From IMG/VR virus record IMGVR_UViG_2706794697_000013: 48,556 bases of DNA; one strand, written 5' to 3'. A program made the translations under genes and the position numbers. This document shows, piece by piece, positions 3,822 through 37,992 of this stretch. The notes under the pieces were generated by a model. The model had not been told where the DNA came from. It ran no database searches and saw only the letters and a list, made by a program, of their open reading frames with translations. The first letter of the stretch is position 1. Every line of letters starts with the position of its first letter. The DNA comes from a virus (Duplodnaviria > Heunggongvirae > Uroviricota > Caudoviricetes).

Positions 3822-4473
3822 TCAGAATTTATAACCGACACCCACGATGAAACCGTCAGTGCGCCAGTCGCCACTGCCGGAGCCTTCATAAGCAATATCA
3901 ATGGCCACGGATTCGGTCGGGTTAAACTGCACGCCAGCTCCCCACGCCAGAGACGTGTTGCTGTGGCGACCGTCATCACTTCCGGTCAGCACGTCGTGCG
4001 TTTTCCCCTTGTTGTCAGTTACGCGGAGATAATCCCCGGAGAAAGTCGACACACGGCTGTAAGCCACACCCGCCATCGCATACGCGCTGAACCATTCATT
4101 CACGCGCACAGACGGCCCCGCCATTACGCTGAACCAGCGGTTACGAACGGAATCTTCATGCCAGCGGGTATCGCTGTAACGGGTCAGCTGGCGATTCTTG
4201 TCTCCTGCATAGCTGAATGACGTCACCAGCCCCAGNNNNNNNNNNNNNNNNNNNNNNNNNNNNNNNNNNNNNNNNNNNNNNNNNNNNNNNNTCCGTAAAC
4301 TCATAACGGTATTTCACGTTAATCCCGTTCAGATCATCACTGCCGGGAACGTTGGTCCGGGCATGAAGATACCCCGCGCTCAGCGTGGACTGATGTTCAG
4401 ACGCCCATGCAGGCGCACCGGATACGGCCAGACAAATGGCTGCGGACAAAATTGCTGCACAAACTTTACGCAT
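3822..4473 (-). CDS. lom: Lom-like outer membrane protein (interrupted by an N-run at 4236-4291)
   Basis: N-terminus MRKVCAAILSAAICLAVSGAPAWASEHQSTLSAGYLHA and C-terminal beta-barrel sequence as recalled for lambda Lom; two ORF-track pieces are in frame across the N-run. Confidence 0.75.
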
Positions 4474-8665: not shown

Positions 8666-9291
8666 TTGTCGGTGTACCTCTCTCGTTTACTCAGTTGTTC
8701 AGGAATATGGTGCAGCAGCTCGCCGTCACCACAGTAAATGGCGGCATGATTCGGCACCGATGAACCAAAACAGCACAGCAGCACATCGCCCGGCTGCGCC
8801 GTTGACAACGGCACCTGATACAGCCCTGTAGCCTCCAGATTATCCAGATAGAGATTCTGACCATTACGCCACCAGTCGTCCTCACGATGAAAATCTGGCA
8901 TCTCAATTCCCGCCAGATGGTAAGCGTCCCGGAACAGCGTGTAACAGTCCGTCACCCCGTGCTCAAAGCGCCGCCCGGTGAGATGCGGCACACAGCGGAA
9001 CTNNNNNNNNNNNNNNNNNNNNNNNNNNNNNNNNNNNNNNNNNNNNNNNNNNNNNNNNNNNNNNNNNNNNNNNNNNNNNNNNNNNNNNNNNNNNNNNNNN
9101 NNNNNNNNNNNNNNNNNNNNNNNNNNNNNNNNNNNNNNNNNNNNNNNNNNNNNNNNNNNNNNNNNNNNNNNNNNNNNNNNNNNNNNNNNNNNNNNNNNNN
9201 NNNNNNNNNNNNNNNNNNNNNNNNNNNNNNNNNNNNNNNNNNNNNNNNNNNNNNNNNNNNNNNNNNNNNNNNNNNNNNNNNNNNNNNGCAC
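8563..9291 (-). CDS. Tail assembly protein K-like (NlpC/P60-type); N-terminal part masked by N-run 9003-9287
   Basis: Unmasked C-terminal part (..VPNHAAIYCGDGELLHHIPEQLSKRERYTDKWQRR..) resembles lambda K as recalled; boundaries uncertain because of masking. Confidence 0.55.
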   Translation of the reverse strand: MXXXXXXXXXXXXXXXXXXXXXXXXXXXXXXXXXXXXXXXXXXXXXXXXXXXXXXXXXXXXXXXXXXXXXXXXXXXXXXXXXXXXXXXXXXXXXXXXFRCVPHLTGRRFEHGVTDCYTLFRDAYHLAGIEMPDFHREDDWWRNGQNLYLDNLEATGLYQVPLSTAQPGDVLLCCFGSSVPNHAAIYCGDGELLHHIPEQLSKRERYTDKWQRRTHSLWRHRAWHASAFTGICSDLAAASTFV

Positions 9292-26375: not shown

Positions 26376-27833
26376 TTAGGAGCGCCAAAAAAAACCTGAA
26401 AACAATATAATAACAGGATAAATTTCAAGGCGACCAAGAATCATAGCTATGCACATTAAATATTTTGCAATGTCATTAAGCACTCCGAATGACGATGCAG
26501 TAGCCCCAAAACCTAATCCCATATTATTAATACATGCAGCCACTGTTGCAAATGATGTAAGAAAATCATATCCCATACCATTTAACACCAGTATAAAAAA
26601 CACCGTGAAGAGAGTATAAAGAAAAAAGAAACTCCATACAGACCTCATTACACGATCTGTAACTATCTTCCCTCCTACATTTACACTCAACAACGCTCTG
26701 GGATGAGAAAGCTGATTTATCTCGTGTTTGCTTTGTTTGAAAAGTATAAGAAATCGAAGTGACTTAATTCCACCACAGGTTGAACCTATACATCCCCCAA
26801 AGAAACTTGACAACAGCAAAAACACTATCGTGTGCGTGGGCCAGTTTGCATAATCCTGCGTAGCTAAACCATTATCAGTGAGCATGGAGCTGGCAAGAAA
26901 AAACGAATGAATAAAACTTCCATGCAAGTCATACATACCTATATGCCAGACCTGGAAAGAGGTAACAATGATCACCCCTAAGGCTATTAACAGAAAGAAA
27001 CGAAGTTCAATATCTCTGATTAAAGGTTTTATCGTTTTTCTGCTAATAACAATATACCAAAGAGTGAAGTTGAAAGCCGATAGCAGGGAAAAAGAACCAG
27101 CCACCAGCTCAACCAAATAGTTATTAAAATATCCGATACTCTCGCTATGAGTTGAGAAACCACCAAGCGAAACTGTGGAAATCCCGTGACAAATAGCATC
27201 AAACAAAGGCATTCCTGCAAGTCTATAACAGACAATACAAGCAATACCTAATAAAGAATAAGTTATCCACAGTGTCCGTGACGTATCGGCCAGGCGGGGA
27301 GTGAGTTTGTCATCCTTAAATGGCCCCGGCATTTCTGACTGATAAAGCTTTGCACCACCAATACCCAATAATGGCAATACTGCAACCGCCAGAACAATAA
27401 CTCCTAAACCACCTATAAAATTTAACTGTGACCGATAGTACAAATATGCCCGAGGTAATGAACTAACATCATCAATTACAGTTGCTCCTGTTGTTGTTAT
27501 TCCAGAAACCCCTTCAAACAGAGCATCAATGAACGTTAAATTAAGTTCTGAGTCAATCCATAAAGGGAATGCACTAATAACAGAAAACAAAATCCAAAAC
27601 ATTACAATTATAATAAACCCATCACGGGTACGTAATTGAATGCCAGATTTCTTAGTTGTATACCACGCTCCGCCACCAATGCAAAAAAATATAACGAAAG
27701 TTATAAAGAAAACGAACAGGCTTTTTTCTTTATAAAACAATGCTACAACCATTGGTGGCAACATTGAAAGACTATAGAGCCAAACCAGGAACCCACACAT
27801 ATGAGTAACAACTCTTACATGAGATGTATTCAT
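26376..27833 (-). CDS. trkG: Trk-system potassium uptake protein TrkG
   Basis: 485 aa polytopic membrane protein from MNTSHVRVVTHMCGFLVWLYSL.., recognised as K-12 Rac TrkG; gene is visibly AT-rich. Confidence 0.85.
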   Translation of the reverse strand: MNTSHVRVVTHMCGFLVWLYSLSMLPPMVVALFYKEKSLFVFFITFVIFFCIGGGAWYTTKKSGIQLRTRDGFIIIVMFWILFSVISAFPLWIDSELNLTFIDALFEGVSGITTTGATVIDDVSSLPRAYLYYRSQLNFIGGLGVIVLAVAVLPLLGIGGAKLYQSEMPGPFKDDKLTPRLADTSRTLWITYSLLGIACIVCYRLAGMPLFDAICHGISTVSLGGFSTHSESIGYFNNYLVELVAGSFSLLSAFNFTLWYIVISRKTIKPLIRDIELRFFLLIALGVIIVTSFQVWHIGMYDLHGSFIHSFFLASSMLTDNGLATQDYANWPTHTIVFLLLSSFFGGCIGSTCGGIKSLRFLILFKQSKHEINQLSHPRALLSVNVGGKIVTDRVMRSVWSFFFLYTLFTVFFILVLNGMGYDFLTSFATVAACINNMGLGFGATASSFGVLNDIAKYLMCIAMILGRLEIYPVIILFSGFFWRS

Positions 27834-27970
27834 ATCTAAATATTCTTTCAATTATAACCACCTTGCTGCAATATTATGATTATACTGTATAAAATTTAAC
27901 TCCTCTTAGATCTTACTTCACTGTTCCTTATGAAACAATCATCAAAATGAATCATATTGTAGTTAAGATT

Positions 27971-28435
27971 TTACTTTAAACACTGCTCGGTTATGTATTG
28001 CTGAGCACCTTCAAGTTGGGCCTGCATCATTACCAGTCGTTCCCGGAGGGTGAAATAATCCCGTTCAGCGGTGTCTGCCAGTCGGGGGGAGGCTGCATTA
28101 TCCACGCCGGAGGCGGTGGTGGCTTCACGCACTGACTGACAGACTGCTTTGATGTGCAACCGACGACGACCAGCGGCAACATCATCACGCAGAGCATCAT
28201 TTTCAGCTTTCGCATCAGCTAACTCCTTCGTGTATTTTGCATCGAGCGCAGCAACATCACGCTGACGCATCTGCATGTCAGTAATTGCCGCGTTCGCCAG
28301 CTTCAGTTCTCTGGCATTTTTGTCGCGCTGGGCTTTGTAGGTAATGGCGTTATCACGGTAATGATTAACAGCCCATGACAGGCAGACGATGATGCAGATA
28401 ACCAGAGCGGAGATAATCGCGGTTACTCTGTTCAT
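27971..28435 (-). CDS. Spanin inner-membrane subunit (Rz)
   Basis: Single N-terminal transmembrane segment then coiled coil; ATG at 28435 overlaps the endolysin stop (ATGA). Confidence 0.75.
28030..28215 (-). CDS. rzoR: Spanin outer-membrane lipoprotein (Rz1, RzoR-like), embedded in Rz
   Basis: 61 aa in the +1 frame inside Rz; lipobox VVGC and proline-rich [15 protein letters not shown]; matches K-12 RzoR as recalled. Confidence 0.8.
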
Positions 28436-28929
28436 TGCTGACCCCACAAACAGATTTCACGCTCAATCTCACGACGAGTCATGAGACCTTTCCATTGCTT
28501 ACCGCCAGCATATGTCCAGCGACGTAGCTGATCACATGCGCCTTTGATATCGCCCTGGTTTATTTTGCGAAGAAGCGTCGATGTTCTGAAATTGCCAGCA
28601 CCCACGTTGTAAACGAATGAGTAAAGAGCGCCGCGCGTTGTTTCCGGTATATCGACTTTGATGTACGGGTTAATTTGTCTGGCGACAGTGGCAAGGTCTT
28701 TATTCAAGAGTGTTTTGCATTCTGCTTTGGTATACGTTTTACCGAGCATGATGTCTTTTCCTGTATGCCCGTGACATACAGTCCATACACCAACAATATC
28801 TTTGTATGGTATGTAGCTGACACCTTCCAGACCATCGTTACCACTTGGGCCAGTGATTAACACTGATGCTATAGCAATTGCTCCGCCACCAATAGCAGCA
28901 GCAACGACTTTTCGTAATGATGGAGGCAT
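28432..28929 (-). CDS. SAR endolysin (phage 21 R-like lysozyme)
   Basis: 165 aa; N-terminal Gly/Ala-rich signal-anchor-release segment; stop overlaps Rz start, start overlaps holin stop. Confidence 0.8.
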
Positions 28930-29144
28930 TATTCACCTCTCGCAGCCTTGCGCTTATCTTCTTTAATCTTGAAATAAAGGTTTGTCAGGTACGTCAGCAG
29001 GCCAAATACCAGACTACCCAGCACACCGATTGCAGCCCACTGTGACGGAGTTACTCTATCGAGCAACTGTAAAAACCAGTAGCCAGCACTGCCTGCGGAG
29101 GTGCCGTAGGCAATGCCTGTTGAAATTTTGTCCATGGATTTCAT
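28929..29144 (-). CDS. Pinholin (phage 21 S-like) with dual-start motif
   Basis: 71 aa from [14 protein letters not shown].. with GGAGGT RBS 7 nt upstream; two TM segments; ORF track extends 19 codons further upstream. Confidence 0.8.
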
Positions 29145-29246
29145 AGCCTCACCTCCGCACGGAACGGATGGCATAGTTATTATGTGTAGGCTTTCAGACA
29201 CATCAATCAGAGCCTTAATTGATATATATGCTGGAGACGATGCAAT

Positions 29247-29270
29247 ATAAAAAGCTCGCCGTAGCGAGCT
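29247..29270 (-). terminator. Rho-independent terminator after the lipoprotein pair
   Basis: Minus strand AGCUCGC-uacg-GCGAGCU followed by UUUUUAUAUUG, between lipoprotein 2 stop and holin start. Confidence 0.6.
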
Positions 29271-29395
29271 AATAAAATGTATTTCTCTGATATTATGTTT
29301 ATTTGTATTAGCTCAGACTTGACATCACAGGTTTCGTATATAGAACATCATCAAATCTGTCAGTTTGCTATGAATGAGATATAGTAATTGAAGAG

Positions 29396-29791
29396 CTAAC
29401 CTCGCATGTCAAAGCCAGATTTCTGAAAATCTCTGTAGACTTCCGGATTGTTGAAGGCCGGAAATTTGGCTTTATGAGCTGCGGACTTTATCGCTTCGCA
29501 ATAGGCTTTATCACCGTTACTGGTAGATATTTTTAACGCCGTGCCATCCTGAGAGAATTCCATATGCAACCTGCATTTTTTCCCTTTCCAGTTATGCGGC
29601 TCATCAAGTTTGGCATTAATTGCAGCTCTGATTCCCCGCGCTTGCGCCCCCCATTCATCCTGATCATCCCAGCGTCCTGAACTGCAACTACCTGTAGCAG
29701 TAGTTTTGTGGCAATCTGAAGGGTGTAAAGGTGTGCATCCCGCAACAAAACCGACCCAAAAAGTCAACATAACGATTTTCTTTAATCCCAC
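29396..29791 (-). CDS. Lipoprotein with TolA C-terminal (domain III)-like domain, copy 2
   Basis: Probable GTG start with GAGGAG RBS; lipobox VAGC; C-terminal ..KKCRLHMEFSQDGTALKISTSNGDKAYCEAIKSAAHKAKFPAF..PEVYRDF.. resembles TolA domain III as recalled. Confidence 0.65.
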   Translation of the reverse strand: MGLKKIVMLTFWVGFVAGCTPLHPSDCHKTTATGSCSSGRWDDQDEWGAQARGIRAAINAKLDEPHNWKGKKCRLHMEFSQDGTALKISTSNGDKAYCEAIKSAAHKAKFPAFNNPEVYRDFQKSGFDMRG

Positions 29792-29941
29792 TTCTTGCTC
29801 CTCAATCCATTAAAATCTCAGCAATAGTAGTTGTTACGTCCGCCACTGGCTCAGAGCTGACTATCCGCTAAATTTAGCTCAGTGCCGTAGCTGTGTCAGA
29901 ACAAACCTAAGCCGAAACCGTTTATTACAAAACAATAAATA

Positions 29942-30370
29942 TCAGGGTTTAAAATCCAGCACCCCATTTTGAAATACTTTATATACTTCCGGCGAAGGGG
30001 GGGCAGGTATATCAGCATTCTTTATCGCATTCATCGCTTCACGACATAAATCGAGGTCTCCACTTTCTCTTTTAACCTCCAGTAGAAGGCCATTCGGGGC
30101 CATATGCATTCTCAGTGTACACTCTTTTCCTGAATACTTACTCGCATCCCCGAACTGTTTTTCGATGGCGCTCTTGATTTGATGGGCATACAGACGGATA
30201 TCCTCACTAACATCAGAAGTACGTTCAGATGAACTCACATACTGTGTCTCTATTGCTTTATCGGAGTAATATGATGTACGGTCATGATAATTTGTCGATA
30301 CAGCATCAGTGCACCCGATAATAATCCCACTAATAATCAACGTAAGAATTGATGCGCTACGAAAACCCAT
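29942..30370 (-). CDS. Lipoprotein with TolA C-terminal (domain III)-like domain, copy 1
   Basis: ATG with GAGGAAAA RBS; lipobox IIGC; C-terminus YAHQIKSAIEKQFGDASKYSGKECTLRMHMAPNGLLLEVKRESGDLDLCREAMNAIKNADIPAPPSPEVYKVFQNGVLDFKP closely follows the E. coli TolA C-terminus as recalled. Confidence 0.75.
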   Translation of the reverse strand: MGFRSASILTLIISGIIIGCTDAVSTNYHDRTSYYSDKAIETQYVSSSERTSDVSEDIRLYAHQIKSAIEKQFGDASKYSGKECTLRMHMAPNGLLLEVKRESGDLDLCREAMNAIKNADIPAPPSPEVYKVFQNGVLDFKP

Positions 30371-30960
30371 TTTTCCTCACATATGTCATATAGTAAAGGA
30401 TTATATATACCGTTGTTTTGGACGCTCAAACAGCGAATCAGATCAAATAAAACGCACATTTGTTAACATTTACACAAAGTCTGCGTGGGATATTCTGAAA
30501 GAATATCCATAATGTGGAGAGAATCTATTGAAGTGCATGGTGCCGGGTGCCTCCCGGTGAACAAAATGTTCGTGATACCTGTCGGCGACAGAAAAGGTTA
30601 ATGGTATCACCCCACCGCACAGGGGGATTCACCATGCAGGAGTTTTCTTAGCAAACTCACTGCGCGCCCGGCAACTCCCAACCACATAAAATGCGGAGTT
30701 TGTGGCATTTATGCATATAACTCGCAGGAATTATCTTAAAAAACTGATGTCGATCCGGATTAAAAAGAAGCAGGTCATCATCAGATGACTGGAAAAAAGG
30801 AAAACAAAAAATACTCATCATACAGTTTTGATTGCAGGGATGAGCCTGCTATGCACAATATGCAGAATATAAGCAAGATAAAAATATGCAGGCATATTAT
30901 TTCGGATCTTGTTATTAACACAACCTTTTTAATAATCATTTGGCATACAATAAACCAGCC

Positions 30961-30987
30961 CAAAAAGAACCGCCTAAACAGGCGGTT
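30961..30987 (-). terminator. Rho-independent terminator in the Q-to-lysis intergenic region
   Basis: Minus strand AACCGCC-uguuua-GGCGGUU followed by CUUUUUGGG. Confidence 0.5.
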
Positions 30988-31307
30988 GGTCAATACAAAG
31001 GATGCTTCGTCTTTATTATAGTAATCTGAGGCGTCGGGTGTCTTGTATCAGACAACATATTGTCCCGCTAAACAGCGAATTACAAACCACCCTGCAATGA
31101 TCTCTCATCTCATTTTATATGAGTTGACGACATCAGGATAACGCATCATCAGCCCCTGCCAAGAAATATCAAAACTCCCGCCAGCAATGTGTTATCACAA
31201 TATTGTAAAAAAAACACAGCACCGAAACTATAACTGGTCTCTGTTATAATTTGGAGCAGAAAGACCAGTTGCCCAACTAGCAGCATTCTCCCCTGCTTTC
31301 CTGACGT

Positions 31308-31334
31308 AAAAAAACCGCATTAAGCGGTTTTTTT
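31308..31334. terminator. Bidirectional hairpin terminator downstream of Q (candidate tR')
   Basis: AAAAAAACCGC-ATTAA-GCGGTTTTTTT, symmetric A-run and T-run flanks, about 80 bp past the Q stop. Confidence 0.6.
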
Positions 31335-31414
31335 ACGATGTCCATGTCTGCAATCCGCCTCGCGATACAGCTTTGCGAAGCATAGCAAAATTGAAGCAGT
31401 TTATACGTAAGAAA

Positions 31415-31957
31415 TCAAGCCATTTTCTCAGCAAATGATTCACGCATGGGAATATATAGGGCATACTCAGCAACAGCTAACCAATTAGCAATCCGTTTTT
31501 CGCATGTGCTAAAACACCACTCTGGGTGTGCATCATTTAGCAATTCAGCCATTTTGCGCTTAGTCATCCCCCGCCCTTCATAGCGTTGCCGGAGAATGCA
31601 AATCAATCCTGGATGCTCTGCCAGCACCTCACTTATGACTCGATCAATACATAACGCCTCTGCATCAGTACAATGCGCCAGCCAGCTCTTTTGCTTGCCG
31701 TTGATCATCTCTCGCAAAAACGCTTCCAGCTCAGCTTTCTCTATTCCCGCTTTTTTCATTCTGCGCAGGGCTTCATTAATGGCTGTTTTCGTCAGTTTTT
31801 TGGATGCCAACAACTGATTGAACATATTCCCTGACCTGCCACCGCCAATATACGACCAGCGCCCCCACATACGTAGTTTTCCCTGAATCCAGACACTTTC
31901 CAGCGTGGTGAGGCGAAGGTGTTCTCCGCTTTTTCCTGTATTCGTTGGGTAAATCAT
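31415..31957 (-). CDS. Late gene antiterminator (Q-like)
   Basis: 180 aa ORF directly upstream of the late region, after nin-type genes; family call is by position and general resemblance. Confidence 0.5.
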   Translation of the reverse strand: MIYPTNTGKSGEHLRLTTLESVWIQGKLRMWGRWSYIGGGRSGNMFNQLLASKKLTKTAINEALRRMKKAGIEKAELEAFLREMINGKQKSWLAHCTDAEALCIDRVISEVLAEHPGLICILRQRYEGRGMTKRKMAELLNDAHPEWCFSTCEKRIANWLAVAEYALYIPMRESFAEKMA

Positions 31958-32244
31958 AAATGACCTTTCTTTCTCCAGATTTCTTGTGTGCGAAAAACCC
32001 CTTCAGCATGCATCAGGCGCAATTCTTCTTTGGTGTAATCGCTGGTTTTTACCCGCCCGTCGATTAGATCGTGGCATGAGCTACAGGCTATCGCCGCCTG
32101 CATATCATGTGGTTTTGTCGCTGTTCCGCACGTCCCCGCCAGCCTGTAATGCGCCAGCACAGAGGTTTCGGGATTGTGATTGCAGTAGCCAGGGATTCTG
32201 ATCTGGCACATCTGGCCTTTAGCCGCTTTACGTAAATTCACCAT
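31954..32244 (-). CDS. YbcO-like (DUF1364) Cys-rich putative nuclease
   Basis: 96 aa with ..LRKAAKGQMCQIRIPGYCNHNPETSVLAHYRL..CGT..KP..IACSSCHDLIDGR.. resembling DLP12 YbcO as recalled. Confidence 0.6.
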   Translation of the reverse strand: MVNLRKAAKGQMCQIRIPGYCNHNPETSVLAHYRLAGTCGTATKPHDMQAAIACSSCHDLIDGRVKTSDYTKEELRLMHAEGVFRTQEIWRKKGHL

Positions 32245-32954
32245 TACGCAAACTCCAGTAGTTGTGCGGCCACATTTTCAACTTCCTCCTGAGAGGAGAA
32301 TTTACGGAACAGAATCCAGTTCCACAGCACATTCAGTACAGATTTATAAACCTGCTGAAACTCGACTTCGTCCATATTCGCAAAAGCGATGGATTTTGCC
32401 CGACGCCCACGGCTACCGTCCGGATAAATATGCTCGGTGTAAAATCCGGCCTGAATGGTTACCCACTCGCGGAAAGCCTCAAACGACTTTAGCAACGCCG
32501 TATCCCGGGTTCTACGAGTCGCAACGGTGTTAAGGTATTGCTCTGCGGCATCACTCAGGGCTGGCGTGTGTTCCCGACCAACTGATTCGCACAGGTAATC
32601 AACGAAACCAGACAGCAGTTCTCGTTCGCGAGGCGTGATCGCCCCACCGACCGGAGTCCAGTAATCGAATCCCAGTTGCNNNNNNNNNNNNNNNNNNNNN
32701 NNNNNNNNNNNNNNNNNNNNNNNNNNNNNNNNNNNNNNNNNNNNNNNNNNNNNNNNNNNNNNNNNNNNNNNNNNNNNNNNNNNNNNNNNNNNNNNNNNNN
32801 NNNNNNNNNNNNNNNNNNNNNNNNNNNNNNNNNNNNNNNNNNNNNNNNNNNNNNNNNNNNNNNNNNNNNNNNNNNNNNNNNNNNNNNNNNNNNNNNNNNN
32901 NNNNNNNNNNNNNNNNNNNNNNNNNNGGTGTAAAGCCCCACATAGCATGAACAA
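32244..32954 (-). CDS. Nin-region protein (DUF1367-like), N-terminal part masked by N-run 32680-32926
   Basis: Unmasked C-terminal ~145 aa in frame with the masked stretch; lies between replication genes and ybcO-like gene. Confidence 0.4.
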   Translation of the reverse strand: MFMLCGALHXXXXXXXXXXXXXXXXXXXXXXXXXXXXXXXXXXXXXXXXXXXXXXXXXXXXXXXXXXXXXXXXXXXXXXXXXXXXXXXXXXXQLGFDYWTPVGGAITPRERELLSGFVDYLCESVGREHTPALSDAAEQYLNTVATRRTRDTALLKSFEAFREWVTIQAGFYTEHIYPDGSRGRRAKSIAFANMDEVEFQQVYKSVLNVLWNWILFRKFSSQEEVENVAAQLLEFA

Positions 32955-33128
32955 ACACTACATATCAAATAGCTGGTACAAGGATAGAAATACGACACTT
33001 ATTATTAAAAACGATTAGATAAATTACATTTTAATGTTATGCAAAAGTTCTTTTTTATCATAACATTTCAATAAAAGCATTACAGATGCAATCATCCCGT
33101 CATCATCAATTATTTAAGGTGGTTAAAC

Positions 33129-33215
33129 ATGGAAAATAACAAGTTCGCACATCTCGCTCCTTTTTTATCCGTAATCCTTTTCGCTTGTTGTTTTATATGG
33201 GCATTATTTTTATAA
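33129..33215 (+). CDS. Small hydrophobic peptide (28 aa, candidate membrane peptide)
   Basis: AAGGTGG RBS 6 nt upstream of ATG; MENNKFAHLAPFLSVILFACCFIWALFL then TAA; sits in an AT-rich non-coding stretch. Confidence 0.3.
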   Translation: MENNKFAHLAPFLSVILFACCFIWALFL

Positions 33216-33606
33216 AGTAGCCACATGATAAGTTGCTGGAATCATATTTCCCACTCAAGTCATTAACATTTGATAAGATATATCTAAAAGGACGCCTTTA
33301 CATTATTTATGCGTATATAATTTATTTATATACACAGTAAAGGTATCCTGGGAAAATATTTATCGTTAAAAAATACATCATAAATAATTAAGCTGAAATT
33401 TCAGAACACAACTAATACACACAATAAGGTTCAGTAACAGTAATCTATGTGGACTACATCGAGATTTTTTGATTAAACTTTAATAACTTATTCCTAACAC
33501 ACAGAATGCATAAACTAAAAGTAAAACAAATAGTTATACGAAAAACAACCATATTTATTCTATCTTCTCCTCTAATCAACATATCAATTATGTGTTTCAT
33601 AACAGC

Positions 33607-33646
33607 TTGACATAACCCTCCAAAAGATGCATTTTTAATGCATGTT
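33607..33646 (+). promoter_or_regulatory. Candidate promoter with NsrR-type operator upstream of the yeaR-like gene
   Basis: TTGACA at 33607-33612; AAGATGCATTT-t-TAATGCATGTT at 33624-33646 matches the 11-1-11 NsrR inverted-repeat consensus (AAGATGCATTT n AAATGCATCTT) at 20 of 22 positions. Confidence 0.55.
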
Positions 33647-33661
33647 TTGGAGGAGGTGGTT

Positions 33662-34000
33662 ATGACACACAAGAGAATTCCTAAAGATTGGGTAATCAAA
33701 CGCTCAACTCCGTTCTTCACAAAAGAGAACGTACCTTCAGCGTTATTAACACATCATAATACAGCAGCAGGTGTTTTTGGGCAGTTGTGCGTAATGGAAG
33801 GCACTGTAACATATTATGGTTTTACTGATGAGAATGCTACTGAACCGGAGATAAAAGTAGTCATTAATGCTGGCGCTTTTGCAACAAGCCCACCACAATA
33901 CTGGCACCGTGTTGAACTAAGCGATGATGCTCAGTTTAATATTAACTTTTGGGTCGCTCCAGACTTTTCGGGCGAAAAAGTCTATAGCACCAAAAAATAG
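33662..34000 (+). CDS. YeaR-like DUF1971 protein
   Basis: GGAGGAGG RBS before ATG at 33662; ..RSTPFF..GV..L.VM.G.V.Y.G..DE...EP...VI.AG.FA..PP..WH..D..FNI.F.VAP.. follows K-12 YeaR as recalled. Confidence 0.65.
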   Translation: MTHKRIPKDWVIKRSTPFFTKENVPSALLTHHNTAAGVFGQLCVMEGTVTYYGFTDENATEPEIKVVINAGAFATSPPQYWHRVELSDDAQFNINFWVAPDFSGEKVYSTKK

Positions 34001-34029
34001 ATGATCATATTAAAAATGCTTTAACAGTC

Positions 34030-34067
34030 AGACCCGGCAGGGCTATCCCCGACGGGTCTCATTTTTG
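34030..34067 (+). terminator. Rho-independent terminator after the yeaR-like gene
   Basis: AGACCCG..CGGGTCT inverted repeat followed by CATTTTTG, 30 bp after the stop. Confidence 0.55.
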
Positions 34068-34620
34068 TAAATATATTGGTTCTACATTGACAGGAGACTT
34101 CAACCATAAGAAGTAATCTGAATACTTGAGCAATAAATTTACTTAAGATTAATGAGCGCACCTTGCCGGACAAAGATAAACCAAGGTAACACCTTTTTTC
34201 TAGCCAGTATGTAATCAATCAGAAAGCCGCTCCATAAGAACAACAGCAAGACAATAAATTGCCATTACAGCCGCAATAGCCAGCGCACATTTGAGAACCA
34301 GCACGACAACCCCCTGTATTAGACGCACACCAGTCCTGATAAATATGAGGCTGTCTCGTCAGTGATTCAATACAACTATTGGGTATAGTTTCTGTGATTT
34401 TATTCTGTAGAAATGGAACACAACAACCAGTCACCACCAGCACTTCCTTAAATGCTCTAAGTCAGAAACAAGCCAACATTTTAGTCCGCTTTGAGCGATC
34501 TGCAGACATTGCTAGCAGCCTTCTGTGTGAATTCTCAGGGAGCAGGTCGGCATAGCATCACGTTGAGGCTCTTACCCTACTTGTTCACACCAACCCTAAC
34601 TCCACAGACTGATTCATAAA

Positions 34621-35622
34621 TTAGTAATCTGCGTGTTTCGCACTTTTCAGAAATGCTTTCATATTTTCATTAGGTCGCTCAATTTCGAAGTTACTTCCAT
34701 ATAACTCTTGTAATTTTGGCCATAACTTACTTAATAACCCTCTCCTGCGATAAAATGGATGTATCCAAACGGTAGATAGGTACGGAGAATTTGCATTTGA
34801 ATTGTTTATTGTGACCAGCCCAACTAAACATTGTCGATAACCACTATTATCCATTGATTGTATTTCTTCGACGAATGGATACGCGATTACATCAGTCCAA
34901 CCATGATCGGTTGTATCCCATTGCATTCCGTCATGACATTCCTTCGACTGATAGCGGCGTAAAGCTACACACGCGAGCTTTTGCCAATCTGGAGAATTAA
35001 TTGTGATCTCTTCATCGTATGACGCGCCTATTGGAGCGGGTATTGGTCTGATTAATCCAGCATGGCATTCATCATAGAACTTCATGTTTCCCTCAGAAAC
35101 GTTGTGTACGTTGGGTTGCTCCATGTGTGCGCCATTCAAAAATAGCTCTGATAGTAGTGTATCTACACTGTAATCTTTATTGATTATTGTCGGCTTAGAG
35201 TTTTTCTTATTAAGGCCGCGAGTAACGATTTTTTGATCAATGTTAACAACATGGAATAATCCGTCGGGGAGGCTAGCGAACCACGATGGGGCATCGGACC
35301 AGAATAGCATGCCTTTTGTACTTCTTAAGAGTTTAATTAAGTTAATACAAGCTTCTTCACTAGTCTTGCCGTTGATGCGAAGTATGTTAGGACTAAAGTA
35401 ATATTCATCCATATCAGGGAATGCAGCTTCGCAAAACTCCTGTACATAATTTAGCACCTGGATTCTACAGAGATCATCATAGCTGGTAATAACTAAGGGG
35501 GTATCTTCATTACTATTATGATTATCAATAATGCAATCTATAGCGAGACTTACTGCTTTGCGTATCACTTCAGTTGAATCTAACGACTCTAAAAATTTTG
35601 TCTTTCGTGTGCGAATATCCAT
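34621..35622 (-). CDS. Hypothetical protein B (333 aa) with GNAT-like C-terminal motif; second gene of AT-rich cassette
   Basis: ATG at 35622, 15 nt after protein A stop; C-terminal ..LSTVWIHPFYRRRGLLSKLWPKLQELYG.. resembles GNAT motif A; AT-rich. Confidence 0.6.
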   Translation of the reverse strand: MDIRTRKTKFLESLDSTEVIRKAVSLAIDCIIDNHNSNEDTPLVITSYDDLCRIQVLNYVQEFCEAAFPDMDEYYFSPNILRINGKTSEEACINLIKLLRSTKGMLFWSDAPSWFASLPDGLFHVVNIDQKIVTRGLNKKNSKPTIINKDYSVDTLLSELFLNGAHMEQPNVHNVSEGNMKFYDECHAGLIRPIPAPIGASYDEEITINSPDWQKLACVALRRYQSKECHDGMQWDTTDHGWTDVIAYPFVEEIQSMDNSGYRQCLVGLVTINNSNANSPYLSTVWIHPFYRRRGLLSKLWPKLQELYGSNFEIERPNENMKAFLKSAKHADY

Positions 35623-35637
35623 GTATGACCTGCGCTA

Positions 35638-36660
35638 TTAAAATTCATGAATGAACGGTTTGTCATCTGGTTGCAAAATGGTGGTTTTATTCGTTGCTAC
35701 ATTTAAACTGTTGTAGAGCATAATTGCCAGGTTCGATGCATTTTCAATCAGCGTTTCAAGATCCTGGTCTGTAATCACTACGAGGTTCCCTTCTTTATCC
35801 TTTCCACCACGATGCACTAAGTGATTTCGATTGAGGGTTGCCAATTCAATAGCTTCTATCGGACAGTCTTTTTGTACTTTTATATCGAATGTAGCTTCAT
35901 AGCGGTCGATTACCTTTTTAGTGCTATGCCAGCTTGCACTGATCAAGTGTTCCTTGATTGACCTGATTAGCTCTCCCCTAATTTTCTCGATGGGTTCACC
36001 CTTGAAAGGCAACGCAGCAATATCTTTGCTTACTTTAAATTCAGTCTTACCTTTTTCTATACAATTGGCTATGTAGACATCATCTTTCTCTATAGAATTA
36101 ATGAATAGCTCAACATAAAGCGTTTCCAAAGCTGTAATAACATTCGTGTAGAGCAAACTAAGCAAGTGGTTTTTTTGCTGTTGTTCAGTTTTATCTTTTG
36201 CAAGTTTTTTTATTTTATCGATATTATCAATGAATTTTAAATACGGATTACCGGAAGACGTTACAGCGTCGTAGATATCATCATCGTACCAATCATCTAT
36301 ATTATTTGAGTTTCCAGACCAGTCAAAACATTGTGTTTGTAATTCATCTACTAATTCCTCAATATACTCAGATTTAACATATTGACCGAAGATGGATTGT
36401 AGTTCTTCGCTCGCATCATACGGCCCGCCATATATGTAAGCATAGCCACCTTCTCTACTTTCATACGGACAAGCATTTGCCGGATCTTCAAAGTTTTCAA
36501 AGAACCAGTTTTTCATTACTTCGAGTTGATCTTTTTTGCTTATGTATTTTAAAGATTTTAGTGGAACTTTCTTTCCATTAACCTCGAAAACAATTTTCAC
36601 GATGTAACGCTCCCTTGTATCAATTGCGCAACTATTATACCACAGCGAAATACAGGGCAT
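35638..36660 (-). CDS. Hypothetical protein A (340 aa) with C-terminal HEPN-type Rx4H motif; first gene of AT-rich cassette
   Basis: GGAGG RBS 6 nt upstream of ATG at 36660 (ORF track extends 23 codons further); C-terminal ..ELATLNRNHLVHRGG.. fits R-x4-H; about 36 percent GC by hand count. Confidence 0.6.
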   Translation of the reverse strand: MPCISLWYNSCAIDTRERYIVKIVFEVNGKKVPLKSLKYISKKDQLEVMKNWFFENFEDPANACPYESREGGYAYIYGGPYDASEELQSIFGQYVKSEYIEELVDELQTQCFDWSGNSNNIDDWYDDDIYDAVTSSGNPYLKFIDNIDKIKKLAKDKTEQQQKNHLLSLLYTNVITALETLYVELFINSIEKDDVYIANCIEKGKTEFKVSKDIAALPFKGEPIEKIRGELIRSIKEHLISASWHSTKKVIDRYEATFDIKVQKDCPIEAIELATLNRNHLVHRGGKDKEGNLVVITDQDLETLIENASNLAIMLYNSLNVATNKTTILQPDDKPFIHEF

Positions 36661-36798
36661 AACCTGCCTCCTTAAACTAACATACCATGAGCCAGCAATG
36701 TCCGCTATTGGCACAAAGCGGACAACCACGCTAGCTCTCCCCTGTGCCAGAAAAATGTCAATTTACATATGAACTAATGCTCTTTGATCTAGTAACGT

Positions 36799-37215
36799 CT
36801 ATAAATACCGAAGATTTCCTTGATAAAATGCCAGTACACGTTTCATAACTTCACTCTTCCGGCACTCGCGACAGATTATGTTCTGACGCCTGTCATAGCG
36901 GCGTATTTCTCCGTCTGGTAATGACCAGATAAGGTCAGGATCAACCACAACCGTTTTTTTCACCTTTGCCCTGGATAGTTTTTTGCGGGCGTTTTTCCAA
37001 TCCTTACGAGCCTGTTCAGACGGGAATAACCCATAGCCAGAGTTGTATACATCGCCACTGGCAACCAACTCTCTGGCAAGAATGCTCATCAGATATCTTG
37101 TCGCACCTGTCTTGGCCTCCAGTTGCCTTAACGTCTCGCGCCCACTCTGGCGTACCAACTCAACAACCTGCTCCTTAATTTTTTCACGCTCTTCCTGTGT
37201 AAAAACTTTTGCCAT
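36799..37215 (-). CDS. Hypothetical protein (138 aa)
   Basis: ATG at 37215 directly after the upstream stop; basic C-terminal half with CRECRK; family not recognised. Confidence 0.45.
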   Translation of the reverse strand: MAKVFTQEEREKIKEQVVELVRQSGRETLRQLEAKTGATRYLMSILARELVASGDVYNSGYGLFPSEQARKDWKNARKKLSRAKVKKTVVVDPDLIWSLPDGEIRRYDRRQNIICRECRKSEVMKRVLAFYQGNLRYL

Positions 37216-37230
37216 AAGCGCCTCCGGCAA

Positions 37231-37992
37231 TCACTTTTCCGACACAATACGACTGGAGGAATCGACAATCTGTCGGACAATATCCCGGTGCTTGTTCAGC
37301 TCCCGCAGCGCGGCGCAGACTCGCTCCCACTTCTGGACATGATTTTTCGCCCGACGCAGTTCGCGGTTTGCCATATGCAGCGATGGTAAAACTAGGTCAT
37401 CCGCTTGCGTTTCAGTAAACGATGGCAGCGACTGCACAATGTCCGCCACAGTTTCTGTTTTAATATCTTCCTGTGTTGCCGCTTCCTGTACTGGTAACGC
37501 AACACCGGCTGGCTGAGGAAAGGCTTTACCATCAGTTTCCGCTACCGATGCAGCTTTCGGCTCTGCTGGTAAATTATCGCCCGGCATGCAGTAACGAAAT
37601 TTACTGTTCTGGTTTACGCGAATCAGGCGTCCTTTGCTGATTGCCATTGCCAGCGTTGAAGCAACTTTGCGGGATGTTGTACCGAACAGCGTAGCCAGTT
37701 CATCCGCCGTTTGTGGTCCGCGTTGTTCAATCGTCGCGGTTAAATCGCACTCTGAGATTTTCACTACAGTTGCCGTGGTGGTTTCTTCCGGCAGTTCTGC
37801 CTGCATTGGCTGTTCCTGCTGAACGTTGTTATCAGCCACACGCCAGGTGTACGCGCTTTTATCAACGAAACCAGCTTTTTTCAGTTCCCATAGTTCGTTC
37901 AGCACTTCTTCACGACTGATATCAAGTCGCGCAGCAAGTTCTATGGATGTGGCTTTTCCCATTGCTTTCAGTGCGTCAAAAACAGTCTCCAT
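37231..37992 (-). CDS. Hypothetical protein with two winged-helix-like segments (253 aa)
   Basis: GGGAGG RBS before ATG at 37992; ..[26 protein letters not shown].. and ..[31 protein letters not shown]..; follows ydaV. Confidence 0.45.

Follow-up and report, generated by a model that had tools for sequence, protein, structure and literature searches.

Two predicted lipoproteins with a stand-alone TolA domain III ahead of the lysis genes of a Rac-like prophage

What might a prophage gain from carrying, just ahead of its lysis genes, two small lipoproteins that each end in a likeness of the C-terminal domain of the cell envelope protein TolA? The question is raised by a 48,556-nt stretch of DNA from a tailed-phage provirus (IMG/VR record IMGVR_UViG_2706794697_000013; the whole stretch is referred to below as the window), in which two neighbouring genes, hereafter copy 1 and copy 2, had been described in an earlier note, made from the sequence without database searches, as tandem lipoproteins mimicking TolA domain III (TolAIII) and forming a self-contained cargo unit. 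The computational follow-up presented here leaves the domain identity of both proteins standing and limits the mimicry to one of them; on balance, and tentatively, at a little short of even confidence, the most likely role of the proteins would be that of a decoy intercepting Tol-dependent (group A) colicins and filamentous phages.

A TolA domain III behind a lipoprotein signal peptide

The Pfam family PF06519 (TolA C-terminal; gathering cut-off of 25 bits) matches copy 1 at 82.6 bits (E-value of 2.4e-23) and copy 2 at 54.6 bits (1.3e-14), and, when compared with the PDB sequences, copy 1 aligns without a single gap to E. coli TolA 334-421, the last residue included (5e-28), which reproduces the motif string from which a near-collinear likeness of copy 1 to TolAIII had been proposed. 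Copy 1 is identical to TolA at 52/86 positions over residues 336-421 (60.5%), the TolA match of copy 2 is weaker (E-value of 5e-9; 26/77 identical, 33.8%), and the two copies share 28% identity with each other. In AlphaFold (AF2) models, which are predictions by a method whose training included TolAIII structures, the C-terminal domains, modelled at a predicted local distance difference test score (pLDDT) of ~90, are preceded by disordered linkers, and Foldseek places copy 1 on PDB chain 2x9a_B (template modelling (TM) score of 0.96, root-mean-square deviation (rmsd) of 0.6 Å, 88 columns) and copy 2 on 3qdp (TM score of 0.92, rmsd of 1.1 Å), the TolAIII fold being taken as a long first helix, a three-stranded sheet and further helices. 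Aligning both proteins to TolA and modelling their folds, the first of the checks that the earlier note had itself proposed, was accordingly in its favour. The cysteine pair corresponding to TolA C363 and C388 is present in both copies and in all of the aligned relatives.

Both copies share the Pfam family, fold and disulfide cysteines with E. coli TolAIII (residues ~330-421; PDB 1TOL, 2X9A, 3QDP/3QDR and 1S62), from which they differ in what precedes the domain: domain I, the TolQ/TolR-binding transmembrane part that anchors TolA in the inner membrane, is replaced by a cleavable lipoprotein signal peptide, and domain II, the long periplasmic helix, is absent, leaving 25-30 predicted-disordered residues between the lipid anchor and the domain as a short tether. 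In line with this, matches to the NCBIfam models of full-length TolA span only profile positions 265-387, i.e., the last ~100-120, with both copies scoring below the cut-off of 213 for NF007065 (107.8 for copy 1 and 53.7 for copy 2), while for TIGR02794 (cut-off of 59.45) copy 1 scores above it at 75.6, through its C-terminal part alone, and copy 2 below it at 47.2. Without domains I and II, the proteins would therefore have no coupling to the TolQR motor and would serve as binding modules only. A Pfam scan at an E-value of up to 1 returned solely TolA, TonB_2 and, for copy 2, a chance-level But2 match; the BFVD viral structure library gave no significant match; and a homologue search using the copy 1 domain alone retrieved just short proteins of E. 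coli/Shigella and no full-length TolA.

The two small lipoproteins claimed earlier, with lipoboxes IIGC and VAGC, were indeed found as open reading frames with canonical signal peptides on the minus strand (Table 1). The N-termini, MGFRSASILTLIISGIIIGC in copy 1 and MGLKKIVMLTFWVGFVAGC in copy 2, each combine a basic n-region and a hydrophobic core with a lipobox (I-I-G-C20 and V-A-G-C19, respectively) that satisfies the pattern [LVI][ASTVI][GAS]C and is kept across relatives. Thr occupies position +2 in both copies, and in the relatives this position is taken by Ala or Ser. As Asp at +2 is the inner-membrane retention signal under the E. coli +2 rule, the Thr residues predict that both lipoproteins are probably sorted by the Lol system to the inner face of the outer membrane. 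Copy 1 is preceded by the Shine-Dalgarno sequence GAGGA ~5 nt 5' of its ATG and copy 2 by GAGGAG 5' of its GTG, a start codon supported by the use of ATG at the same codon in the plasmid homologues. The linker of copy 2 is conserved and contains an additional Cys27/Cys36 pair, as well as a GRWDDQDEWG motif.

As the substitution patterns indicate, both are real genes under purifying selection, which in copy 1 acts on the domain and not on the linker: the ratio of nonsynonymous to synonymous substitution rates (dN/dS) is 0.09-0.25 for the copy 1 domain, a relaxed 0.5-0.77 for its linker and 0.08-0.13 for the copy 2 family, and copy 1 variants at 66-91% identity retain the 142-aa architecture unchanged. 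This is not what RefSeq annotation conveys, as in the three genomes checked copy 1 is called a 261-bp pseudogene (“tolA, incomplete, missing N-terminus”), likely because TIGR02794 is passed by the C-terminal part alone, and copy 2 is begun at an internal ATG (124 aa), whereby the n-region of its signal peptide is lost. Both calls resemble artefacts of annotation, and the number of genomes affected may run into the hundreds. They help explain, together with a deletion in strain K-12 described below, why these genes have been little studied.

The extent to which the likeness includes the surfaces used by TolAIII ligands differs between the copies. According to published work, g3p-N1, colicin N and TolB bind one common TolAIII site composed of helix 334-349 and strand 412-420, and colicin A binds the opposite edge, involving residues 375-380 plus K368, K379 and K396 (PMC3365938, PMC4339652, PMC7391070); mutation of TolA I344, I348, D418 and K420 abolishes colicin N and g3p function (PMC4339652), and the affinities of TolAIII are ~1-12 µM for colicin N and g3p-N1 and ~40 µM for TolB (PMC4339652, PMC7391070). 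Copy 1 is identical to TolA at 11/14 positions of helix 336-349 and 7/10 of strand 412-421, amounting to 18/24 over the g3p/colicin N/TolB face, with 34/62 identical in the rest of the domain and 4/9 at the colicin A site; I344, I348, D418, K420 and both disulfide cysteines are all retained. For copy 2, the respective counts are 4/14, 2/10, 6/24, 21/62 and 2/9, and all three of the colicin A lysines are replaced. The positions of TolA D418 and K420, at which the replacements D418P and K420P abolish the binding of colicin N and g3p, correspond to D139 and K141 in copy 1 and to D128 and R130 in copy 2. The term “mimic”, applied earlier to both proteins, consequently suits one of them: judged by sequence, copy 1 is a true mimic of E. 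coli TolAIII, whereas copy 2 is a diverged relative, the ligand range of which presumably differs from that of copy 1. A TolB-box mimic in the copy 2 linker, where SSGRWDDQDEWG resembles the colicin E9 motif DGSGWSSENNPWG, was considered and rejected, because the tryptophans are spaced differently and the second of them falls within the first helix, which is modelled with confidence.

A mosaic late-region setting and relatives on plasmids and chromosomes

The window represents a Rac-like prophage, with trkG and ynaK downstream of the pair, EssD/RrrD lysis genes adjacent to it and genes for DUF1367, DUF1364 and DUF1133 upstream, so that the pair occupies the slot between the antiterminator (Q) position and the holin gene; together with a promoter-like site and a terminator, this agrees with the cargo-like layout ahead of the lysis genes that had been proposed. 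As in the Rac prophage of K-12, the potassium transporter gene trkG lies between the lysis and packaging genes as further late-region cargo. Three runs of N, either masked or unresolved, occur in the window (4236-4291, 9003-9287 and 32680-32926, being 56, 285 and 247 bases long), the third of which interrupts a DUF1367-like open reading frame upstream of the Q-like gene and ends similarity searches at 32680.

Table 1. Coordinates of the two lipoprotein genes, their signals and neighbours in the window, and of selected relatives elsewhere
Feature	Sequence	Coordinates	Strand	Details
Copy 1	Window	29942..30370	(-)	142 aa, ATG start, predicted outer-membrane lipoprotein; signal peptide 1-19, lipid-modified Cys20, linker ~21-50 disordered, TolAIII domain 51-142
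Copy 2	Window	29396..29791	(-)	131 aa, GTG start, predicted outer-membrane lipoprotein; Cys19, linker ~20-45 disordered, TolAIII domain ~46-131
Intergenic spacer	Window	29792..29941	(-)	150 nt; weak promoter-like site 29899->29871
Sigma-70 promoter-like site TTGAGC-18-TATAAT	Window	30429->30400	(-)	Consensus scan 10/12; ~30 nt 5' of copy 1 ATG
Terminator-like hairpin	Window	29245..29270	(-)	7-bp stem, 5 G-C pairs, UACG loop, then UUUUUAUAUU
STnc100-family prophage small RNA	Window	30481..30667	(-)	Rfam RF02076, 86.6 bits vs gathering 47, E 1.8e-18
EssD-type holin gene	Window	28929..29201	(-)	RefSeq annotation, called as 216 nt
DUF1133 gene, antiterminator (Q) position	Window	31415-31957		RefSeq annotation
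Candidate late promoter AAGACA-18-TATAAT	Window	31044->31015	(-)	Pattern only; downstream of DUF1133 gene
Terminator-like hairpins	Window	30987-30956	(-)	Pattern only; after candidate late promoter
trkG	Window	26376-27851		Potassium transporter gene
Late region with copy 1 variant	L094-L096	569-7743		Variant 66% identical to copy 1
Copy 2 relative	L002	6004-6435		Plasmid
Copy 2 relative	L004	5005-5400		Plasmid
Copy 2 relative	L005	5004-5435		Plasmid
Copy 2 relative	L135	1084-1581		Plasmid
Region with copy 2 relative	L010-L013	5001-7736		Serratia marcescens

As for the promoter and terminator of its own that the pair had been credited with, the terminator is the more convincing of the two: the hairpin (-13 kcal/mol for 29270-29253, z = -2.87 relative to shuffles), with its U-run, stands 125 nt 3' of copy 2, directly ahead of the holin gene, whereas the promoter-like site, which includes the previously noted TATATAAT, comes from a scan close to shuffled expectation. 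A terminator scan found none in the spacer between the two genes, and they are likely co-transcribed. Directly 5' of copy 1, on the same strand, lies a match to the STnc100 family of prophage small RNAs (sRNAs), which may be an sRNA in its own right or may belong to the leader of the TolA-like mRNA; the family has been related to PasD sRNAs by a 2026 preprint. Should the candidate late promoter and the hairpins that follow it (31044-30956) be pR' and tR', late transcription would extend across the pair as well. No tRNA genes were found between Q and the pair. Two sub-threshold matches to the isrK family of Hfq-binding sRNAs (~20-22 bits, the gathering threshold being 50) lie on opposite strands at 31253-31381, just downstream of the Q-like gene, and probably represent chance or a distant relative.

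The pair region (29200-30500, 1.3 kb, counted at a coverage of at least 80%) is found in 773/5426 complete E. coli genomes (14%), nearly always at an identity of at least 99%, and 153 stretches among IMG/VR proviruses match it. Among 50,697 deposited phage genomes searched by tblastn, only mEp460_ev081 (LR597641.1) was positive, sharing with the window a block that corresponds to 28928-30658 at 96.9% identity and is surrounded by different Q and lysis genes, which suggests that this phage recombined with a Rac-like prophage resident in its host and acquired the block in this way. Breakpoints at ~28930-28940 and ~30560 recur in IMG/VR proviruses, and the mobile block therefore consists of the holin gene, both TolA-like genes and part of the STnc100 sRNA, the 3' part of which falls within it. 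In K-12, by comparison, the Rac prophage (NC_000913.3, at 1423200) is without window positions 28416-37542, a ~9.1-kb deletion having joined ydaW to rzpR and removed the Q-like gene, both TolA-like genes, the holin and the lysozyme. Related phages and prophages (L098, mEp460_ev081, the IMG/VR proviruses and K-12 Rac) thus differ in presence or absence at this module junction.

The genes also have histories of their own. Copy 1 variants occur singly between Q and holin genes, and one such variant, 66% identical, sits in the stxAB position of an Stx-phage-like late region, where the order is Q, a TfpB-like gene, an AraC-type regulator, the copy 1 variant, a nanS-p-like gene, DUF1378, DUF826 and holin genes. 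In the prophage L098, which has the same Q module and copy 1 only, sequence similarity to the window breaks off precisely at the stop codon of copy 1 (29941), and copy 2 was therefore joined on separately, with the junction in the spacer. The pair is thus paralogous, as had been stated, but as old paralogues at 28% identity, each also found alone, and not as a recent duplication; likewise, a self-contained cargo unit is in keeping with the slot and the candidate signals, but not with the mobile block, which takes in the holin gene and part of an sRNA, nor with the separate histories of the two genes.

Copy 2 is 88.5% identical to a protein of IncI1 plasmids, and its plasmid relatives, present in ~600 plasmid records, are located directly after nikA-nikB on IncI1, IncB/O, IncK and IncZ plasmids. 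On pMS7163B, the gene has been naturally truncated by a resistance-region insertion that replaced the last helix and strand of the protein, and the plasmid still conjugates; transposon insertions in the truncated gene were neutral for conjugation (log fold change (logFC) of +0.39, compared with -5.69 for nikB), a result of limited value, since the gene is already truncated, and one indicating no more than that transfer does not depend on an intact copy. Members of the copy 2 family also occur as lone chromosomal genes in ~30 species-representative Enterobacterales genomes, with synteny within genera only. In Serratia marcescens, the copy 2 relative adjoins a GmrSD_N (DUF262) and HEPN defence-type pair, a possible defence-island association. 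A full-library search (E-value of up to 1e-3) recovered no fewer than 130 clusters at 50% identity, for the most part proteins of 110-165 aa and for the most part with a lipobox, and named members of this wider class bear automatic names only.

A decoy and its alternatives

According to the decoy model, a lipoprotein on the inner face of the outer membrane would hold, by a flexible tether of 25-30 residues, a stand-alone TolA domain III, which colicin translocation domains or g3p-N1 entering the periplasm would meet ahead of the genuine TolA; competitive, unproductive capture by the decoy would then stall entry. Expression would occur in lysogens from the pair's own promoter and also as part of late transcripts. 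Because colicin N and g3p-N1 bind TolAIII at ~1-12 µM and TolB at ~40 µM, a modest amount of the decoy could keep invaders out while leaving Tol-Pal function largely unharmed. That an excess of the domain may act in this manner is also what earlier experiments would lead one to expect, as Levengood-Freyermuth et al. reportedly observed in 1993 colicin tolerance, as well as leakiness, upon over-production of periplasmic TolAIII, and Riechmann and Holliger are said to have shown in 1997 that Ff infection is inhibited by soluble TolAIII.

Carriage on prophages (including the stx slot), IncI-complex plasmids and chromosomes, once next to a GmrSD/HEPN defence-type pair, speaks for independence from phage lysis and is in keeping with the decoy model. 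So is, in particular, carriage on IncI plasmids, as the pili of these plasmids attract the phage If1, which uses TolAIII as a co-receptor, and the plasmid's own pili would thus expose its host to If1; the top structural match of copy 1, PDB 2x9a, is the complex of If1 g3p with TolAIII.

A number of observations nevertheless weigh against assigning the pair a decoy role. The enrichment of identity on the ligand face of copy 1 (18/24 compared with 34/62) is suggestive and not significant (one-sided Fisher p = 0.07), and in copy 2 most of the E. coli TolA contact residues are gone, so that known ligands may not bind. Promoter-like sites occur near the chance rate (11 found, 7.2 expected from shuffles), making the site ahead of copy 1 a pattern match only. 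The pair moves together with the holin gene, which could point to a lysis-related role, and the many lone chromosomal members in non-mobile contexts would fit a housekeeping envelope role as well. A decoy that binds the TolB N-terminus could come at a cost to the host. Finally, PADLOC-DB 2.0 contains no defence-protein match for either protein at an E-value of up to 0.1.

The first of the two main alternatives, an unlikely one, is that the proteins modulate the Tol-Pal system itself to the advantage of the element, engaging the TolB N-terminus, or some other partner of TolAIII, at the outer membrane and thereby reducing TolA-driven mobilisation of Pal, which would loosen the outer membrane for spanin-mediated lysis, raise vesicle release or remodel the envelope, with any protection being a side effect. 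The TolB-binding strand and helix are, after all, kept in copy 1, the site being common to TolB, g3p and colicin N (PMC4339652, PMC7391070), and vesicle production could be regulated via TolB interactions according to a review (PMC7391070). The pair is, moreover, situated immediately upstream of the holin gene that it moves with, and would share transcripts with the lysis genes should the candidate pR' prove genuine; yet a terminator stands between the pair and the holin gene, plasmid and chromosomal relatives of copy 2 have no lysis genes nearby, and lambdoid phages lyse well without such genes, with only one of the 50,697 deposited phage genomes having one. The weak interaction of TolAIII with TolB would also mean that sequestration requires much protein.

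Comparably doubtful is the alternative that the proteins act in the envelope through a partner that is not among the known TolA ligands, the gene having simply been picked up by mobile elements. The fold shared by TolAIII and the TonB C-terminal domain (TonB-CTD) is a general strand-augmentation module, by which copy 2 and its chromosomal relatives may bind some other envelope protein; the ligand faces of copy 2 differ from those of E. coli TolA (6/24 and 2/9), its family is highly conserved, including the linker motif and the extra cysteine pair, several members occupy stable chromosomal sites, and the wider class, with its at least 130 clusters of mostly lipobox-bearing short proteins, is large. 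On the other hand, chromosomal position is kept only within genera, which fits horizontal spread, the gene is repeatedly found on plasmids and prophages, and copy 1 clearly tracks E. coli TolA, with the data suggesting no alternative partner.

Much less probable still is a function in conjugation or entry exclusion, which the conserved position after nikB in IncI1, IncB/O, IncK and IncZ plasmids might bring to mind, but which is at variance with the conjugation of pMS7163B despite its truncated copy, in which insertions are neutral, and with prophage and chromosomal copies having no transfer genes nearby; IncI plasmids, besides, already have ExcA/TraY for exclusion. That the genes are inert leftovers, functionless fragments of a captured tolA, as the incomplete-tolA call of RefSeq and the passing of TIGR02794 through the C-terminal part only would have it, is very improbable given the intact copy 1 open reading frame with its start codon, Shine-Dalgarno sequence, signal peptide and lipobox, and is contradicted by the dN/dS of the domain and by the 142-aa architecture kept across variants, the pseudogene call being best explained as an artefact of measuring a short protein against a full-length TolA model.

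Relation to known systems and significance

The nearest natural parallels to the decoy model are the phage lipoproteins Cor (phi80, N15 and HK022) and Llp (T5), which provide superinfection exclusion by inactivating the surface receptor FhuA. These, too, are small outer-membrane lipoproteins encoded by accessory genes of phages and prophages and thought to block the entry route of competitors, but their sequences are unrelated to those of the window proteins, for which the PHROGs hits were confined to families 5772 and 5374 and the Pfam ones to TolA/TonB_2 and a chance But2 match, none being to Cor or Llp; furthermore, the window proteins would imitate a periplasmic hub, i.e., act at a step after receptor binding. 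A second parallel is artificial: exported TolAIII or g3p-N1 reportedly made cells tolerant to group A colicins and resistant to Ff phages (Levengood-Freyermuth in 1993, Bouveret in 2002 and Boeke in 1982), and the outcome predicted for the window proteins, a titration of TolA ligands, would be the same, although the laboratory constructs are soluble, over-produced and a cause of leakiness, whereas the window proteins are natural, predicted to be lipid-anchored, under purifying selection and carried on mobile elements. With stxAB of Stx phages, the 66%-identical copy 1 variant shares the Q-to-holin cargo slot, and the cargo in the window is flanked by promoter-like and terminator-like signals; the difference is that stxAB encodes a secreted toxin, and the genes described here predicted envelope proteins that would act on the carrier cell.

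Both window proteins already carry labels to which no function is assigned: they belong to PHROG 5772 (E-values of 1e-62 to 1e-65), listed in PHROGs as of “unknown function”, and RefSeq uses the automatic NCBI name [quoted passage not shown]. TolAIII lipoproteins encoded by phages or plasmids, and their function, were not the subject of any paper in the full-text literature searched, outside of which most subscription journals fall; several of the apparent “TolA” matches turned out to be the author name Tolar, and a 2020 review of Tol-Pal (PMC7391070) gave no match for “prophage” or “decoy”. The domain assignment is, therefore, already in the databases, while the combination of a lipoprotein with TolAIII, its distribution and any function are new relative to the literature searched.

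Taking the wider class into consideration, it is conceivable, although we would sooner doubt than assert it, that stand-alone TolAIII lipoproteins are widespread, unrecognised “import-hub decoys” providing receptor-independent immunity against Tol-dependent bacteriocins and pilus-specific filamentous phages, with different members covering different ligands and with IncI plasmids offsetting the phage sensitivity that their own pili create. With TolA domain III being a point of passage common to the group A colicins and the filamentous phages, a mobile decoy occurring in nature would, if true, constitute a new, post-receptor kind of resistance, and for research on the Tol-Pal system the pair would offer a natural probe of TolA-TolB coupling. 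Present in 14% of complete E. coli genomes and, through the relatives of copy 2, on ~600 plasmids, such proteins could have a bearing on colicin warfare, on how sensitive cells are to pilus-specific phages and on the ways in which engineered bacteriocins are used.

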